A DNA stretch of 64,000 nucleotides from Spirochaetota bacterium (GTDB lineage Bacteria > Spirochaetota > UBA4802 > UBA5550), in the NCBI GenBank assembly GCA_963663865.1, contig OY760686.1, forward strand, positions 2,752,001-2,816,000. Direction: 5' to 3'. The notes under the pieces are model-generated. The model saw nothing but the letters and a program-made list of their open reading frames with translations, was not told the DNA's origin and made no database searches. A program made the position numbers and the translations under genes. Below, in pieces: positions 51,520 to 57,614 of the stretch; positions within the stretch are counted from its first letter, which is position 1; every line of letters starts with the position of its first letter.

Positions 51520-52383
51520 TTATTCCGGCTTCTTTGCCGCAATAATCATCATATCTCCGGCGCGGAACCTCTTTGCCGCAAAATCGGCCGCCTTTCTCAG
51601 AACCGTCCCCGGCCTGAAAAACCCGCTTCCATAGGTCCGTGCACTGTGTAATACAAAGCTCTGTCTTACAACCATATCCCTGAGCCCTCTGAACGAAAAA
51701 AAGTTCAAATGCTCGGGGAAGTTATAGTATCTCCATCGGCTTCCCTTCATGAGCATGAAGGGCGATCCGGCTCGGCATGTTGACAGATACAGAAAGCCTC
51801 CCGGCCTGAGCTGGTGGTATGCTCTCGCGAGGAAATCCTCAGGATTGTGAAGATGCTCAATGACCGCCCACATTGTTATCAGATCAAAAGACTTCCCAAA
51901 ATCGGTCCGAAGATAATCACCGCAGACAACATTCAGCCCCCGGCCCCGGGCCGCGGCTGAACATTCCCGTGAAACATCGATCCCGCAGGAATCCCAGCCC
52001 CTTTCGCTCAAGTATTCTACAGAGTAACCGGCAGCGCAGCCGATATCAAGGCAGGCTTTCGAGTCCGTTTCAGCCTCGTAGCTGAAAAAGCCGAGATCAT
52101 TCAGGTTCATCTGAAGCACCCTGATTATTTCCAGCCTTATCCGCTCCGAGAAATAATCGTCGTAACCTCTGTCATCGCGTCTGGTGAAATATTCAGCCCC
52201 GTAGTACTGACTCATGTTCCCGGGAATGGGCCTTGGCGACACGTACCTGTGCCCGCAACGCCCGCACTTCACAAGCGAAAACATCTCTCCTCCGCGTGAA
52301 GGCTTTTCAAAAAGCCGGACAGATTCATCTGAGCCGCAAACGCAGCAGGAGGCTTGCTCAAGTATTTCAGCTCTATCTTCCAA
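51520..52383 (-). CDS. Class I SAM-dependent methyltransferase with N-terminal Zn-ribbon
   Basis: CCVC...CGRC, LDIGCAAG, FDLITMWAVIEHL. Confidence 0.85.
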   Translation of the reverse strand: MEDRAEILEQASCCVCGSDESVRLFEKPSRGGEMFSLVKCGRCGHRYVSPRPIPGNMSQYYGAEYFTRRDDRGYDDYFSERIRLEIIRVLQMNLNDLGFFSYEAETDSKACLDIGCAAGYSVEYLSERGWDSCGIDVSRECSAAARGRGLNVVCGDYLRTDFGKSFDLITMWAVIEHLHNPEDFLARAYHQLRPGGFLYLSTCRAGSPFMLMKGSRWRYYNFPEHLNFFSFRGLRDMVVRQSFVLHSARTYGSGFFRPGTVLRKAADFAAKRFRAGDMMIIAAKKPE

Positions 52384-55300
52384 TCGAATACCTTATGCTG
52401 TCATCGCCGATAATACGGCTCAGCTCTCTCACAAGCTGCTCCGAAGGCGCAATGTTAAATGTGTTGTGGGCCTTTACGATTTTCTCTTTTTTGTCAGACT
52501 CATATATATGAAAGTACACCGGACAATCGCCTCTGTGCTGCGTAAATGTTTCCTTAATGCCTCCGAGCAGCTCCTCGTCAAGGCCGAAGGGATCGAGCTT
52601 GATGTGAATGGCTGAGATAGCATCGCGGCGCGCCTCCCTTAAAAACCTTACAGAGCTGACCATCAGTTTGCCGGGTTTGTCTCCCTCAGTTTCAACCTTG
52701 CCTGTAACAAGCAGGGGCTCAGTCGACATGAGTATCTCCTCAAACTTGGCAAGGGTACGGGCAAAGACGAGAATACCGATCGTGCCCCCCAGGTCTTCGA
52801 GTGTACCGACTGCGTAGCGGTTGCCGTTCTTCTGCGACCTTTTTACCGTAAAGCCATGAACTACGCCGGCTATTGAGACCTCCTGTTCATGGTGATCCCC
52901 GTTCAAATCCGAAATCGAGACAGATGAGTAGGCCTTTATTTCGCTCTGATAGCGCGCCAGCGGATGTCCCGAAACATAGAGGCCGAGCACCTCTTTTTCG
53001 TTATTCAGCCTTTCTGTGTCACACCACTCCTCCATGGGAGCAAGATCAAGGCAAGCAATTCCGTTTTCATTAGAGGGGGCCTCAAAAAGCGACCCCTGTC
53101 CGGAAGCGATATCCTCCTGAAGACGCCTTGCCATTTCAACAAGCGTTTCCACTGAACAGCAGAGCTGCGCCCTGTTTGGATGAATCTCATCAAAAGCCCC
53201 GGCGCGGGCAAGCGATTCCAGAACGCCTCTGTTTACGACAGAGCGGTCAACCCTCTCCAGAAAGTCGCGAAGCCCCGAGAAATCTCCATCGCCCCTGGCT
53301 TCAATTATCTTCTCAATTGCCTTCTCGCCCATTCCCTTGATGGCGCTCAAACCAAAGCGTATCCTCTTCCCCTCAATAGTGAAGTCATAGAGACTCCTGT
53401 TAATAGAAGGCGGCATAACATCGATACCCTCCTGCCTGGCATCGTTAATCAGGATGGAGACATCGTCAGGCGAAGTCGACATAAGCGAAGTCATATATTC
53501 TATGGGATAATGGGCCTTCAGATAAGCTGTCTGATATGTTACAAGCGCGTAAGCCGCGGAATGCGACTTGTTGAAACCGTATTCACCGAACTGCCTGATC
53601 TGTGAGTAAAGCTCTCTGGCAAACTTCTCGTCAATATTGTTCTTCCGGGCGCCCTCGAGAAACTTCTGTTCAAGGGCGTCAATTATATCAACCTTCTTCT
53701 TTCCCATTGCCTTCCGCAGCTTATCCGCTTCAGGCATGGTGAAACCGGCTATTACCCTTGAAATGAGCATGACCTGCTCCTGGTAAATAATAACTCCAAG
53801 AGTATCCTTGAGAATGGGCTCAAGCAGAGGATGGTCATACTTAACAAGCCTGGAATTTCTCTTCCTCTTAACAAAGTCATCTGCCATTCCGGAGCCCAGA
53901 GGGCCCGGCCTGTACAGGGCGACAACAGCCACTATATCCTCAAAGACTGTAGGCCTGACACGCCTGAGCAGATTCTGCATTCCGGAGCTCTCAAGCTGGA
54001 AAACACCGACTGTGTCAGCCTTCTGGAGCAGGGCGAAGGTCTTGCGGTCATCGAGCGGAATGTTCTCAATATCGACAGCCTTTCCGGTGTTCTGTGAAAT
54101 CAGCTTCAGGCACCTGTCAATGATAGTAAGGTTCTTTAGTCCGAGAAAGTCCATCTTGACAAGCCCCGCCTGTTCGATGGAAACCTTCTCGTACTGCGAT
54201 GAAATGCTGCCCTCACGCGGGTCACGGTAAAGAGGGACATAGTCCGTTAACGGCCCTTTGGAGATAACGACACCGGCAGCATGTTTCCCCGCTGACCTGG
54301 CAAGGCCTTCGAGGCGTAAAGATATGTCTATAAGCTCTTTCTCTTCGCCTCCGGCTTCGTACAGCTTCTTCAGATCAGGATTATCGCTTAACGATTTATC
54401 CAGAGTCTTTTCATCGACCATTTTACTTATCTCGTTGGCTCTTGAGAAGGGAATGTCGAGGGCTCTGGCTACGTCCTTGACTACGGCCTTTGCCTTCATA
54501 CGGTTAAAGGTGATAATCTGGCCGACTTTTTCGTGCCCGTATTTATTGCGGACATAGTCAATAACCTCTTCCCGTCTGTCCGCGCAGAAGTCAAGATCCA
54601 TATCGGGCATTTCATTACGGTCCGGATTAAGAAACCTTTCAAACAGAAGGTCGTACTTCAGCGGGTCAAGAGCGGTAATTCCGAGACAGTAAGCGACAAT
54701 CGACCCGGCTGCTGACCCCCTGCCAGGCCCGACAGGAACAGCCATCTTTCTGGCCTGATTGATAAAGTCCCAGACAATAAGGAAATAGCTTGAAAAGTTC
54801 ATTTTCTTTATAACGGAAAGCTCGAATTCAATTCTGGTTGAAACGGCATCGGGCAAAGGCTTGCCGTATCTCTTTTCGGCGCCCTCCGCTACAAGCGCGT
54901 CAAGGAAGCTGTCAAGGCTGTACCCATCAGGTACTTCAAAATCAGGGAGAATAGGGTTTCCAAGATCGAGCTCAAGATTAACCATCTCCGCTATTTTCAG
55001 TGTGTTTGTAAGGGATTCCGGAACCTCTGAAAAAATACGGTGCATCTCCTGCGGGGACTTGAGATAAAAATCGTCGGAGGAAAAACGCATCCGGTTTTCA
55101 TCTTTCATGGTTTTCCCGGTCTGGATACAGAGAAGCACCTCATGGGCATAGGCATCTTCACGGTTGACATAGTGAGCGTCATTAGTTGCCACAAGTGGTA
55201 TTCCCATGTCGGCTGACATTCTAACGAGTTCCCTGTTTACAATCTTCTGCTCCGGAATCCCGTGGTCCTGAAGTTCGAGATAAAAGGAATCACTGCCAAA

Positions 55301-55801
55301 CATCTCTAAAAATCTTCCGGCAAGCTCTCTGGCCTCATCGACAGCGCCTTTTATAATATATCTGGGAATCTGCCCGGCGATACATGCCGAACTGCAGATA
55401 AGCCCCTCAGAGTGCTTTTCAAGAACCTCCATGTCTATTCTCGGCTTGTAGTAAAAGCCCTCGGTGTAACCAATGGAGGAGAGTTTTAGAAGATTTCTAT
55501 ATCCCTCTATGTTTTTAGCGATCAGAACCAGGTGATAGGCGTTTTCCTCTGAGGAATCCCGAACATGCTCCCTGCTGAAGCGTGACCCCGGCGCCACATA
55601 CACCTCTGATCCGATCAGGGGCTTTATTCCTGCTCTCCGCGCCTTCTGATAGAACTCTATAGCGCCGAACATATTTCCGTGATCTGTCATCGCGATCGCG
55701 GGCATATCCTGCTCAACCGCTTTTTCAATCATCCTGTCCACGGTTATCGCGCCGTCAAGAATTGAATATTCGGTATGGTTGTGAAGATGTACAAATTTCA
55801 T
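52373..55801 (-). CDS. dnaE: DNA polymerase III alpha subunit
   Basis: HLHNHTEYSILDG PHP domain, GPGRGSAAGS, MPDMDLDF, HAAGVVI, YGFNKSH; 1142 aa, no intein evident. Confidence 0.98.
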   Translation of the reverse strand: MKFVHLHNHTEYSILDGAITVDRMIEKAVEQDMPAIAMTDHGNMFGAIEFYQKARRAGIKPLIGSEVYVAPGSRFSREHVRDSSEENAYHLVLIAKNIEGYRNLLKLSSIGYTEGFYYKPRIDMEVLEKHSEGLICSSACIAGQIPRYIIKGAVDEARELAGRFLEMFGSDSFYLELQDHGIPEQKIVNRELVRMSADMGIPLVATNDAHYVNREDAYAHEVLLCIQTGKTMKDENRMRFSSDDFYLKSPQEMHRIFSEVPESLTNTLKIAEMVNLELDLGNPILPDFEVPDGYSLDSFLDALVAEGAEKRYGKPLPDAVSTRIEFELSVIKKMNFSSYFLIVWDFINQARKMAVPVGPGRGSAAGSIVAYCLGITALDPLKYDLLFERFLNPDRNEMPDMDLDFCADRREEVIDYVRNKYGHEKVGQIITFNRMKAKAVVKDVARALDIPFSRANEISKMVDEKTLDKSLSDNPDLKKLYEAGGEEKELIDISLRLEGLARSAGKHAAGVVISKGPLTDYVPLYRDPREGSISSQYEKVSIEQAGLVKMDFLGLKNLTIIDRCLKLISQNTGKAVDIENIPLDDRKTFALLQKADTVGVFQLESSGMQNLLRRVRPTVFEDIVAVVALYRPGPLGSGMADDFVKRKRNSRLVKYDHPLLEPILKDTLGVIIYQEQVMLISRVIAGFTMPEADKLRKAMGKKKVDIIDALEQKFLEGARKNNIDEKFARELYSQIRQFGEYGFNKSHSAAYALVTYQTAYLKAHYPIEYMTSLMSTSPDDVSILINDARQEGIDVMPPSINRSLYDFTIEGKRIRFGLSAIKGMGEKAIEKIIEARGDGDFSGLRDFLERVDRSVVNRGVLESLARAGAFDEIHPNRAQLCCSVETLVEMARRLQEDIASGQGSLFEAPSNENGIACLDLAPMEEWCDTERLNNEKEVLGLYVSGHPLARYQSEIKAYSSVSISDLNGDHHEQEVSIAGVVHGFTVKRSQKNGNRYAVGTLEDLGGTIGILVFARTLAKFEEILMSTEPLLVTGKVETEGDKPGKLMVSSVRFLREARRDAISAIHIKLDPFGLDEELLGGIKETFTQHRGDCPVYFHIYESDKKEKIVKAHNTFNIAPSEQLVRELSRIIGDDSIRYSIGR

Positions 55802-55965
55802 TATATATACACTATTATCTTTTCCAGGAAGTTTAAACTGTCAATTTTGTAATGAGTAACACGCGGTACCTCTGCATCTAATCTCCAGAGGTGACATAAT
55901 TTCAAGTATTAATTCCACATCGTCACAAAAACAGCGTCAGGTTTCTCGATATATAAAAATTTTAC

Positions 55966-55992
55966 TCAAGATTTCATCCACGGGTCCGATAT
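55966..55992 (+). promoter_or_regulatory. Sigma-28 (FliA)-type promoter
   Basis: TCAA-15 nt-TCCGATAT versus consensus TAAA-N15-GCCGATAA. Confidence 0.6.
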
Positions 55993-55998
55993 TATAAG

Positions 55999-56056
55999 TA
56001 TCATTTTACACATTAACTTCCTTGCCCCGGGCATTATTGCTGTGGGGCTTTTTTTT
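55999..56056 (+). ncRNA. Candidate ~57-nt small RNA
   Basis: Lies between the sigma-28-like promoter and a GCCCC...GGGGC-T8 terminator; no plausible ORF on this strand; 5' arm contains CAUUAACUUCCUU. Confidence 0.5.
56024..56056 (+). terminator. Rho-independent terminator
   Basis: GCCCCGGGCA-TTAT-TGCTGTGGGGC followed by T8. Confidence 0.75.
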
Positions 56057-56097
56057 GCCCTTGCCATGGAACGCCGGCCATGCTTATCATCTTTTAA

Positions 56098-56126
56098 TTG
56101 ACTATTTGAGGGTACAACCGGATAAT
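56098..56126 (+). promoter_or_regulatory. Sigma-70 promoter of the Trm112-like gene
   Basis: TTGACT-17 nt-GATAAT. Confidence 0.55.
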
Positions 56127-56483: not shown

Positions 56484-57614
56484 ATGTTTGATTCCAAATC
56501 ACCTGTAGTCAAAATTGTAGGCTATACCATAATCGGTTTTTTCCTCCTTATCATCATAATTTCATTCGGAATGCCGGACTTTATGTCAAAGCTCGGAATG
56601 GACCGCTCAGTCGTCGCGAAAGTCAACGGCAAAGAGATTCAGGCGGTCGATTTCCTGAGGTACAGAGACATGAACTACGGAAGGCTCAAGGATTCATCAC
56701 TTGACGCGATGGTTCTGTCCAACTACATTAGCACAATGCTCATCTACGAAAAAGCGGTAGATTGCGGATTTCTTCCGACAGACAGCTATATTCTCGATCA
56801 GATCGTTCAGACACCTGCCTTCAAAGACCCGGATACAGGCAAATACAGCGCCGAGTTGATGGACAGGGTCCTCAAGCAGAACAGATATACCTTTGACAGC
56901 TATTACAGACTGGTGCAGGAAGATATAACCAAAAGACACTTCATGGATAATGTCGCGCTTGGAGCCGCTGTTTCATCTAACGAGATAAAATCAGAGCATA
57001 AAGCCGTAAATACATCAATCGTAATAGCTTACTCACTTGCATCGGTTGACGACCTGAAAAAAAGATACGCCGGTGAGCTCAACGTCTCAGAGGCTGAAGT
57101 CGACGAATTCATGGTTCAAAACAAAGATTCTGTCAAGGACCCGGCTACGGACAGGGCGAGAATAAAGGACGGACTTGTCCACCAGAAGCTGCAGGGCGTC
57201 CAGAACAGGCTGAAAAAAGAGCTTGAAGCGCTTTCGCTGAACAACGGGTCATTTGCAAGAGCTGCCGCGGTCATGGGCGGCAAAATCGGCAGTTCAAAGC
57301 CCTTCGCGGTCGGAGAGAGAATACAGCCGCTCGAAAAGGGAGCAAAGCCCATTGCAGCCCTCGGCTCTTCGCAAATCTTCACCGAATCGGTTATGAGCCT
57401 TCCTCAGGGCGCAGTTTCAAGGCCCATTACTACACCTGATGGAATATATGTCTTTACTGTCACAAAACGCACAACAAAAGCTGAATCGATGACGGATAAA
57501 GATATTGAATCACTGAGAAGGAAGCTAAGCTTTGACAACTACACAGCTTCAATCGAAGGAATACGCAAGAAACTGCACGACGAAGCAAAGATACTGAACA
57601 ACCTGAAAAAATAA
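56484..57614 (+). CDS. SurA N-terminal domain / PpiD-like membrane-anchored chaperone
   Basis: N-terminal TM, VAKVNGKEI, PAFKDP..G.Y, GAVSRPI.T..G. Confidence 0.75.
   Translation: MFDSKSPVVKIVGYTIIGFFLLIIIISFGMPDFMSKLGMDRSVVAKVNGKEIQAVDFLRYRDMNYGRLKDSSLDAMVLSNYISTMLIYEKAVDCGFLPTDSYILDQIVQTPAFKDPDTGKYSAELMDRVLKQNRYTFDSYYRLVQEDITKRHFMDNVALGAAVSSNEIKSEHKAVNTSIVIAYSLASVDDLKKRYAGELNVSEAEVDEFMVQNKDSVKDPATDRARIKDGLVHQKLQGVQNRLKKELEALSLNNGSFARAAAVMGGKIGSSKPFAVGERIQPLEKGAKPIAALGSSQIFTESVMSLPQGAVSRPITTPDGIYVFTVTKRTTKAESMTDKDIESLRRKLSFDNYTASIEGIRKKLHDEAKILNNLKK

Follow-up and report, generated by a model that had tools for sequence, protein, structure and literature searches.

The filaments of spirochetes are heteropolymers of several FlaB proteins, and the manner in which the ratios of these proteins are set is poorly understood. 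Small RNAs (sRNAs) are one known means of flagellar control: FliX, MotR, UhpU and FlgO are sigma-28-dependent sRNAs of Escherichia coli, where the targets of this class are ribosomal-protein, fliC and flagellar regulator mRNAs, and in Campylobacter jejuni CJnc170 antagonises CJnc230. The E. coli sRNAs are described as feeding back on flagellar synthesis by base pairing (PMC10578931), and CJnc170 (FlmR) as an sRNA with a gene of its own, dependent on FliA and of late flagellar class, whose overexpression shortens flagella (PMC11187230); CjNC1/CjNC4 are further C. jejuni sRNAs for comparison (PMC4626219). In Vibrio cholerae, FlaX, which is cut from the 3′ untranslated region (UTR) of flaA and works with ProQ, is described as pairing with several sites on the flaB mRNA, preventing 30S binding and changing flagellar composition (PMC11879080). 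Flagellin leaders are also under CsrA/FliW control, as reported for B. subtilis hag, C. jejuni flaA and B. burgdorferi flaB (PMC9481697). For spirochete flagellins, the control layers found in the texts available are sigma-70 versus sigma-28 promoters and CsrA. Neither a sigma-28-dependent sRNA nor a flaB-pairing sRNA was found in the accessible portions of the spirochete literature, which included T. denticola, L. interrogans and a B. burgdorferi interactome preprint (supplements aside). What might such an sRNA look like in this phylum? A candidate lies at 55966-56056 of a 64,000-nt stretch of a Spirochaetota genome (contig OY760686.1, positions 2,752,001 to 2,816,000; this whole stretch is called the window below). 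It is probably a free-standing gene for a trans-acting sRNA of about 57 nt, transcribed with FliA, which would pair with the mRNA of one flagellin, here called flaB-x, and repress it. The copy in the window belongs to type A, the shorter form of an sRNA family that is restricted to a single order of Spirochaetota, an uncultured one.

The predicted unit and its conservation

A preliminary description of this locus had read TCAA-N15-TCCGATAT at 55966-55992, then a short unit closed by a GC hairpin and T8, and these elements, like all others that it named, were found on direct reading of the window (Table 1). The 61-nt stretch 55998-56058 folds at -16.8 kcal/mol as compared with -10.1 +/- 2.3 in 200 shuffles (z = -2.96), one of which is as stable as the native sequence, and its first 26 nt are essentially unpaired in the predicted fold. 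The terminator is overlooked by a simple terminator scan because its stem is bulged. The unit has a predicted promoter and a U-tract intrinsic terminator of its own, and the reading frames on either strand are short and not conserved. In Rfam 15 no family reaches its threshold, the best scores being those of Esr41 (18.7 bits, threshold 102) and suhB (17.5 bits, threshold 41). The 59-nt type A sequence has no GGA motif, containing the complement UCC instead, which argues that the predicted sRNA is not a CsrB/RsmZ-type sponge of CsrA.

The fliA gene that a sigma-28 promoter presupposes is encoded in the genome carrying the window (G000, 3.16 Mb; other G numbers denote genomes of relatives), with a TIGR02479 score of 287 bits (cut-off 189.6), and hfq is encoded as well. 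Promoters of the sigma-28 type were recognised by a TAAA-like -35 box and a GCCGATAA-like -10 box about 15 nt apart, a description that includes the promoter of the sRNA. A whole-genome FlgM search gave a sole flgM, preceded by TAAA-N15-TCCGATAA 29 nt before its ATG; this promoter was the useful one of the six candidates left by a strict filter for sigma-28 promoters ahead of genes, and its -10 box TCCGATAA is nearly the same as that of the sRNA (a 30-aa N-terminal fragment of the FlgM protein gave no Pfam match). A textbook TAAA-N15-GCCGATAA precedes the type A orthologue in G024, and flaB2 of T. denticola has a mapped sigma-28 promoter that reads TTAA / CCGATAA (PMC9481697). Taken by itself, the promoter-like motif is within chance expectation, its loose form T[AC]AA-N14-16-nnCGATA[AT] occurring 177 times in the 3.16-Mb genome; it is conservation that raises it above chance. 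One further motif, TAAA-N14-TCCGATAT at G000:C1:162927 on the minus strand, is followed about 13 nt later by a strong hairpin and T6. A second sigma-28 sRNA is unlikely at that site, which is probably an ordinary gene terminator because the hairpin stands too near the motif and directly after a stop codon.

That conservation was first visible close to home. When the 368-nt intergenic region was compared by BLAST with 40 relatives, positions 55986-56061, from the -10 box to the terminator, showed 76-85% identity in G024, G020, G013, G018 and G015, which represent five further genera of this family, and the remaining spacer was not conserved, one unrelated 22-mer excepted. A pattern for the RNA part only returned 6 records among 185,579 species genomes, and a second collection-wide pattern scan returned 16, all of them metagenome-assembled genomes (MAGs) of Spirochaetota. 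BLAST and pattern scan together gave eight distinct type A sequences. Every one of them has T[AC]AA, 15 nt (16 in one) and nnCGATA[ATC]; the 12-mer ATCATTTTACAC, which is invariant and lies 7-8 nt beyond the -10 box; a linker that differs in length and sequence; and (A)CTTYCYTGCCC, running into a GC stem with a variable loop and T7-9. The linker, of 3-10 nt in type A, reaches up to about 30 nt in G008 and G010, both of which were added by R1, a covariance model restricted to the RNA part (38 and 39 bits, respectively), together with a variant in G014 (31 bits). Type A occurs in about 11 genomes. The single seed CAUUAACUUCCUU named in the preliminary description thus needs redrawing: it partly overlaps the conserved pairing, and its AUUAA portion is variable linker, so that the AAUG start codon it implied is not conserved. 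The conserved elements predicted to pair are AUCAUUUUACAC (seed 1) and CUUCCUUGCC (seed 2).

Could the region be translated, or belong to its neighbour? On the minus strand an SD-like (Shine-Dalgarno) AAGGAAG precedes an ATG at 56012 that opens a 15-codon frame, and a 33-aa open reading frame (ORF), 55966..56067, is listed in another frame. A small peptide starting at AAGGAAG-N-AUG is nevertheless scarcely conceivable: the linker holding that ATG is variable, the peptide frame is not conserved among type A orthologues, the minus-strand frame from the ATG of the conserved 12-mer runs for 12 codons here and for 3 in G024, G015 and G018, and downstream conservation is limited to the promoter boxes. 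A 5′ leader or attenuator of the Trm112p-like gene would likewise stand on the proper strand, 113 nt upstream of the start codon. This role is most improbable, however, since the separate sigma-70-like promoter noted in the preliminary description does lie between the sRNA terminator and the gene, no alternative anti-terminator fold is evident, the sequence downstream of the sRNA differs even among type A copies, and in most genomes the family is found elsewhere, as type B.

Complementarity to a flagellin start region

The flaB-x gene, one of five flaB genes in G000, was found by a seed-based genome scan and subsequent inspection of the five flagellin genes; its 283-aa product has Flagellin_N and Flagellin_C domains. 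The leader reads ...CAAAGGAGUGUAAAAUGAUAAUUAAUCAC..., with the start codon lying within GUGUAAAAUGAU, the complement of the 12-mer, and about 25 nt upstream stands GGCAAGGAAGCC, the exact complement of seed 2. Folded alone, it forms a 5′ hairpin, a small hairpin UGGC-AAGGAA-GCCA with GGA in the loop, and an open A-rich stretch, followed by the SD and AUG. Seed 1 spans the start codon in every form of the sRNA; in the longer types B and C it is extended to ...ACACUC(C), and the pairing takes in the GGAG of the SD. At seed 2, a C-to-U change in G013 keeps the pairing as a G-U wobble, and in G018 the seed is weakened and the flaB hairpin is changed too.

The preliminary description had proposed a scan for targets at ribosome-binding sites (RBS) of flagellar and chemotaxis genes, and the best predicted target genome-wide is indeed a flagellin start region: with a duplex energy of -28.3 kcal/mol, the flaB-x leader ranks first among 6154 candidate start regions, whose mean is -11.8 (sd 3.0) and whose second-best member has -24.8, in a ranking made in G000 only, with crude start-site calls and with accessibility ignored. 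Cofolding of the whole sRNA yields a net -14.2 kcal/mol with the flaB-x leader vs -1.9 to -7.6 with the other four flaB leaders, and -4.4 +/- 2.4 kcal/mol (minimum -12.3) with 200 shuffled leaders.

The target site is itself widely kept. The sequence GTGTAAAATGAT..., allowing at most 2 mismatches, occurs at one flaB per genome in 36 of 41 close relatives, and the leader motif AAGGAGTGTAnnATGAT in 98 of the 122 genomes of the order, where a common layout is shared: a 5′ hairpin, GGCAAGGAAGCC (the GGC-AAGGAA-GCC hairpin), an A-rich spacer of 18-25 nt, and ACAAAGGAGUGUAAAAUG. Many weak matches of model R1 are in fact the antisense strand of flaB start regions. As for its promoter, no sigma-28-type motif is found within 330 nt upstream of flaB-x; in relatives a conserved CTGGTAT(T/C)AA, about 45 nt before the GGA hairpin, gives a weak hint of the extended -10 of a sigma-70 promoter. 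A paralogous flaB leader (L033 ~1440-1500; Flagellin_N match from 143922, G000:C1) shares CCUGGUAUUAA and ACAAAGGAGUGU with that of flaB-x and has GUGUUUUAUCAUGAU at the position of the sRNA target; it would escape the sRNA because GUGUUUUAUCAUGAU replaces the site. At G000:C1:2584727, on the minus strand, an ORF of 188 aa, for which Pfam gives no match, opens with AAGGGAAGGUGUAAAAUGA, containing an 11-nt match to the seed complement after a AAGGGAAGG run that resembles the SD/GGA elements of flaB-x.

In most of the 41 genomes the exact 15-mer GGAGTGTAAAATGAT has a single site, that of flaB. A second copy stands in G000 at C1:513561-513575, where a gene for a CHASE2-domain protein of 872 aa has its start codon, and may be either an additional target peculiar to this lineage or a chance occurrence; as a conserved second target the CHASE2 gene was discarded, G000 alone among the 41 genomes having the site.

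The two contacts also invite a different view of what the sRNA does. With its GGA-loop hairpin and SD, the flaB-x leader looks like a CsrA-type two-site leader, and a real sRNA need not repress it: it might displace CsrA from the GGA hairpin and so relieve or rewire the FliW-CsrA checkpoint, it might make the mRNA more stable, or an abundant flaB-x leader might sponge an sRNA whose main targets are elsewhere. The complementarity of seed 2 to UGGC-AAGGAA-GCCA speaks for such a role, as do a csrA gene adjoining flgL in this genome, the CsrA sites near the flaB SD reported in the available text on T. denticola (PMC9481697), the conservation of the leader in genomes with no detected sRNA, and the second 15-mer site at the CHASE2-domain gene. 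These proposals are unlikely all the same: seed 1 over the start codon in all forms, and over GGAG too in types B and C, should block initiation regardless of CsrA, the CHASE2 site is peculiar to one genome, and flaB-x holds the first rank in the genome.

An order-wide family and its partial co-variation with flaB

The order is known only from MAGs, and 122 of its genomes were searched. The pattern CGAWA-N6-10-ATCATTTTACAC, combining -10 box and seed, matched in 31 of them (reversed control pattern, 0/122), and 30 of these 31 matches have a -35-like T[ACT]AA. That of G109 was counted as false, being GC-rich, coding-looking and devoid of a terminator (the true G109 locus was found later). The other 30 fall into three layouts: type A, type B and a third form (type C), the last seen in G067, G069 and G071, which belong to a single genus of family f6. 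Type B, of about 97 nt (~95-100), consists of a seed AUCAUUUUACACUC, a hairpin with the 5′ strand GGUCUUCC, the U/A-rich stretch UUUUGCAACAAA, and a terminator CGGGAUA...UAUCCCG with a U tract; none of its matches in Rfam 15 comes near any family threshold. A covariance model built on 17 type B sequences (R2, alignment A2; E <= 0.01) gives exactly one match per genome in 79 of the 122 genomes, distributed over families f1 (47/63), f2 (12/13), f4 (2/2), f5 (6/7), f6 (4/13) and f7 (8/11), with none in f3 (0/12). Types A and B replace each other, since not one type A genome has an R2 match, and the family as a whole extends to about 93 of 122 genomes (79 type B, 11 type A and 3 type C). When 151 genomes were sampled evenly over the phylum, R2 matched 7, all in this order, and it matched none of the 134 sampled Spirochaetota genomes outside it.

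Seventy-five type B loci were extracted from the 79 matches (4 were not fetched), and 72 of them carry T[ACT]AA-N15/16-nnCGAnnn upstream. In genera g3, g5, g10, g12, g13, g22 and g23 the -10 box stands ~16-19 nt before the seed, not 6-7, and the RNA would there have a 5′ extension. In the alignment of the 75 sequences, compensatory changes occur at 3 of the 8 pairs of the terminator; one such pair is C-G in 60 sequences and U-A in 15. RNAalifold recovered the terminator only, because hairpin 1 is too poorly aligned, and folds of the single sequences were used instead: the seed is unpaired in 56/75 minimum-energy structures, and GUCUU is helical in 58/75. The 3′ strand of type B hairpin 1 reads AAGGAAG(G)AC or GGAAAGAC (e.g., L171:1501-1595 and L159:1501-1600). 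This strand copies the flaB hairpin sequence, GGA included, and pairs with the CUUCC of the same sRNA; it might serve as a binding site for CsrA or as a means by which the sRNA masks itself.

The retention of promoter boxes, spacing, 12-nt seed and terminator across genera and families, seen both by BLAST and with covariance models, lends comparative support to the earlier suggestion of a stand-alone sigma-28 sRNA whose anti-RBS seed would tune a flagellar gene. It also bears on the idea that there is no functional RNA, and that the unit is a DNA-level element, a promoter or operator remnant with an orphan terminator, whose flaB complementarity is a by-product of shared ancestry such as an inverted fragment of the flaB leader. 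The reverse complement of the unit does resemble the flaB leader with its middle deleted, and the RNA is a predicted one. Even so, this account is very unlikely: the same layout of promoter, seed at the predicted +1 and terminator recurs in at least two genomic contexts (types A and B), the terminator stems have compensatory pairs, each of the 79 + 11 + 3 genomes has a single copy, and a decaying remnant would not hold a 12-mer invariant over six families.

If seed and flaB are partners, do they change together? The 75 type B seeds were compared with the flaB variants, the state of flaB being given by the two bases before AUG in GUGUAnnAUG. The canonical seed UCAUUUUACAC (n=56) is found with flaB AA in 39 cases, AC in 5, and AG, AU, CA and CC in 1 each, flaB not being found in 8. 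The seed UCAUGUACAC (n=4) goes with CA in 3 (not found in 1), a seed with one U fewer (n=5) with AA in 4 and CA in 1, UCAUUUAACAC (n=3) with AA in 3, and the other seeds (n=7) with AA in 5 (not found in 2). The UU-to-G variant AUCAUGUACAC is restricted to G030 and G057 in family f7 and to G108 and G100 in family f1, that is, to two separate lineages; in its UCAUGUACAC form it sets a G opposite the C of flaB ...GUACAAUG. All three UU-to-G genomes in which flaB is known have ACAAUG; among the remaining 61 type B genomes of known flaB, only 2 have it. Duplex energies are -17.2 kcal/mol for the canonical pair, -13.5 for the canonical seed with variant flaB, -15.0 for the variant pair and -11.9 for the variant seed with canonical flaB. 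The AAGAUG of G094 still pairs by G-U wobble. When ATCATGTACACTC was sought in further genomes, G058, G059, G060 and G005 among them, it was present in G100 only; the pattern ATCATNNTACAC...YTTYCYT, run on 10 variant-flaB genomes, returned mostly the antisense strand of flaB, and the real loci came from R2. The co-variation appears real but partial, and it carries no P value because related genomes are not independent.

Table 1. Positions of the features discussed (window coordinates unless a contig is given).
Feature	Position	Strand	Remark
-35 of sigma-28-type promoter, TCAA	55966-55969	+	Aligned position T[AC]AA in 8/8 distinct type A, T[ACT]AA in 72/75 type B loci
-10 of sigma-28-type promoter, TCCGATAT	55985-55992	+	15 nt after the -35
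Predicted sRNA, ~57-59 nt	55998-56056	+	5′ end placed from the -10 position; 3′ end = U8 tract; model R1 score 68.5 bits
Seed 1, AUCAUUUUACAC	56000-56011	+	Invariant; complement of GUGUAAAAUGAU across the flaB-x start codon
Variable linker, AUUAA	56012-56016	+	Length and sequence differ among orthologues
Seed 2, CUUCCUUGCC	56017-56026	+	Complement of GGCAAGGAAG, GGA-loop hairpin of the flaB-x leader; last 3 nt in the terminator stem
Predicted intrinsic terminator	56024-56056	+	Hairpin GCCCCGGGCAUUAUUGCUGUGGGGC 56024-56048, then U8 56049-56056; GCCCC/GGGGC stem kept, loops vary
Separate sigma-70-like promoter, TTGACT-17-GATAAT	56098-56126	+	10/12 matches; assigned to the Trm112p-like gene, outside the sRNA
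DnaE gene	52376-55801	-	Pfam
Trm112p-like gene, 55 aa	56169-56333	+	Pfam
SurA-like protein gene	56484-57611		Pfam
flaB-x ATG	G000:C1:2604326	-	Leader G000:C1:2604326-2604394 = L034:1917-1985
flgM sigma-28-type promoter	L228 ~1767-1793 = G000:C1:1247127-1247153	-	Near-consensus

The 22-mer of the same spacer, GACATAATTTCAAGTATTAATT (window 55893-55914), recurs with 92-100% identity in the genomes of at least 12 relatives, with flanks that are not conserved. It is single-copy in G000, and its minus strand contains TTGAAA. It stands upstream of dnaE in G000, G018 and G019, and 420-820 nt from the sRNA in G015 and G024; one possible role is that of a dnaE promoter or operator.

Proposed mechanism and relation to known systems

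Several points weigh against an sRNA that is made with sigma-28 and represses flaB-x. The transcript, its ends and its sigma-28 dependence are predictions (of 14 sequencing runs listed for this DNA, 13 contain part of the stretch, and no RNA run was found that contains it), and the simplifications of the duplex ranking given above count here too. The flaB-x leader is kept more widely and more strictly than the sRNA: of the 29 genomes with no detected sRNA, 18 retain it, and in 8 of these, G012 and G019 included, it is unaltered; the sRNA is therefore not the sole constraint on the leader, the other plausibly being CsrA or the ribosome. Conversely, flaB-x was not found in 4 genomes with the CGAWA-seed pattern (G010, G067, G077 and G078; a looser pattern was too noisy). 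Seed 2 is partly sequestered, CUUCC lying inside hairpin 1 in type B and three seed-2 nucleotides inside the terminator stem in type A. In the co-variation, the UU-to-G variant is a substitution plus a 1-nt deletion rather than a clean swap, with a gain of only 1.5 kcal/mol, and at least 6 lineages show uncompensated differences between seed and target: flaB AACAUG or AAUAUG with the canonical seed in genus g12 (5 genomes) and in G009, ACCAUG in G002, ACAAUG with the canonical seed in G081, a U-to-A change of the seed with canonical flaB in G031, G079 and G080, and a seed with one U fewer in G036.

Repression of flaB-x by a sigma-28 sRNA is still the explanation that best fits the material as a whole, and the following course of events is proposed for it. 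Late in flagellar assembly, RNA polymerase carrying FliA would transcribe the sRNA, and the intrinsic terminator would end the transcript. The single-stranded 5′ end AUCAUUUUACAC would then pair over the flaB-x start codon, and in the longer forms over the SD as well, while CUUCCUU(GCC) would invade the GGA hairpin of the leader. With the ~25 nt between both contacts looped out, the leader would be clamped and 30S binding blocked, so that synthesis of FlaB-x would fall once sigma-28 is active. An early flagellin that does not depend on sigma-28 would in this way be lowered as the late genes come on, shifting the balance of the five FlaB paralogues in the filament. A seed at the 5′ end, a U/A-rich stretch and a terminator with a U tail are in keeping with an sRNA of the Hfq type, so that Hfq may take part.

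A bolder version is offered tentatively, since its four parts, taken jointly, are rather less probable than their failure as a set. According to this version, a sigma-28-timed sRNA found throughout the order might seize a non-sigma-28 flagellin mRNA at two places, its GGA hairpin of the CsrA type and its SD/start codon, overriding the FliW-CsrA checkpoint for one paralogue. It might act once the hook-basal body is complete and FliA released, switching the FlaB composition of the periplasmic filament. sRNA and target might have co-evolved, the seed change UU-to-G having followed the flaB change A-to-C twice. Lastly, type A might be a relocated, minimised descendant of type B, in which the GGA of hairpin 1 mimics the flaB hairpin and could bind CsrA.

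How does this sRNA compare with those already described? With about 93 genomes and no entry in Rfam, it would appear to be a new family, unrelated to known ones and of a known functional kind. The E. coli sigma-28 sRNAs are UTR-derived, whereas the spirochete sRNA is free-standing, has another target and shows no homology to them. CJnc170 is like it in its free-standing gene and in FliA dependence, which is predicted here; the mechanism differs, there is no homology, and pairing with a flagellin start region is not among the properties reported in the available text (PMC11187230). The leaders under CsrA/FliW control, as far as the accessible text describes them, resemble that of flaB-x in their two-site layout, a GGA-loop hairpin plus a GGA-containing SD, with the difference that the predicted occupants of the two sites here include an RNA besides the protein. 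The sRNA would thus add a third, RNA-based layer to FlaB control, beside promoters and CsrA, and the prediction is directly testable, as there are one target, two defined pairing sites and natural variants of seed and target. Closest in mechanism is FlaX, on the evidence of its available description: both are sRNAs of the flagellar regulon directed at several sites on the mRNA of one flagellin paralogue, by prediction in the spirochete case. FlaX is processed from a 3′ UTR, whereas the spirochete element stands free between dnaE and a Trm112p-like gene and has a sigma-28-type promoter of its own. The two come from unrelated phyla, and the spirochete sRNA has no match in Rfam; it is not assigned to the FlaX family, no direct sequence comparison with FlaX having been made. 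The Vibrio-type solution, an sRNA acting at several sites on one flagellin mRNA, may thus have arisen independently in a distant phylum.

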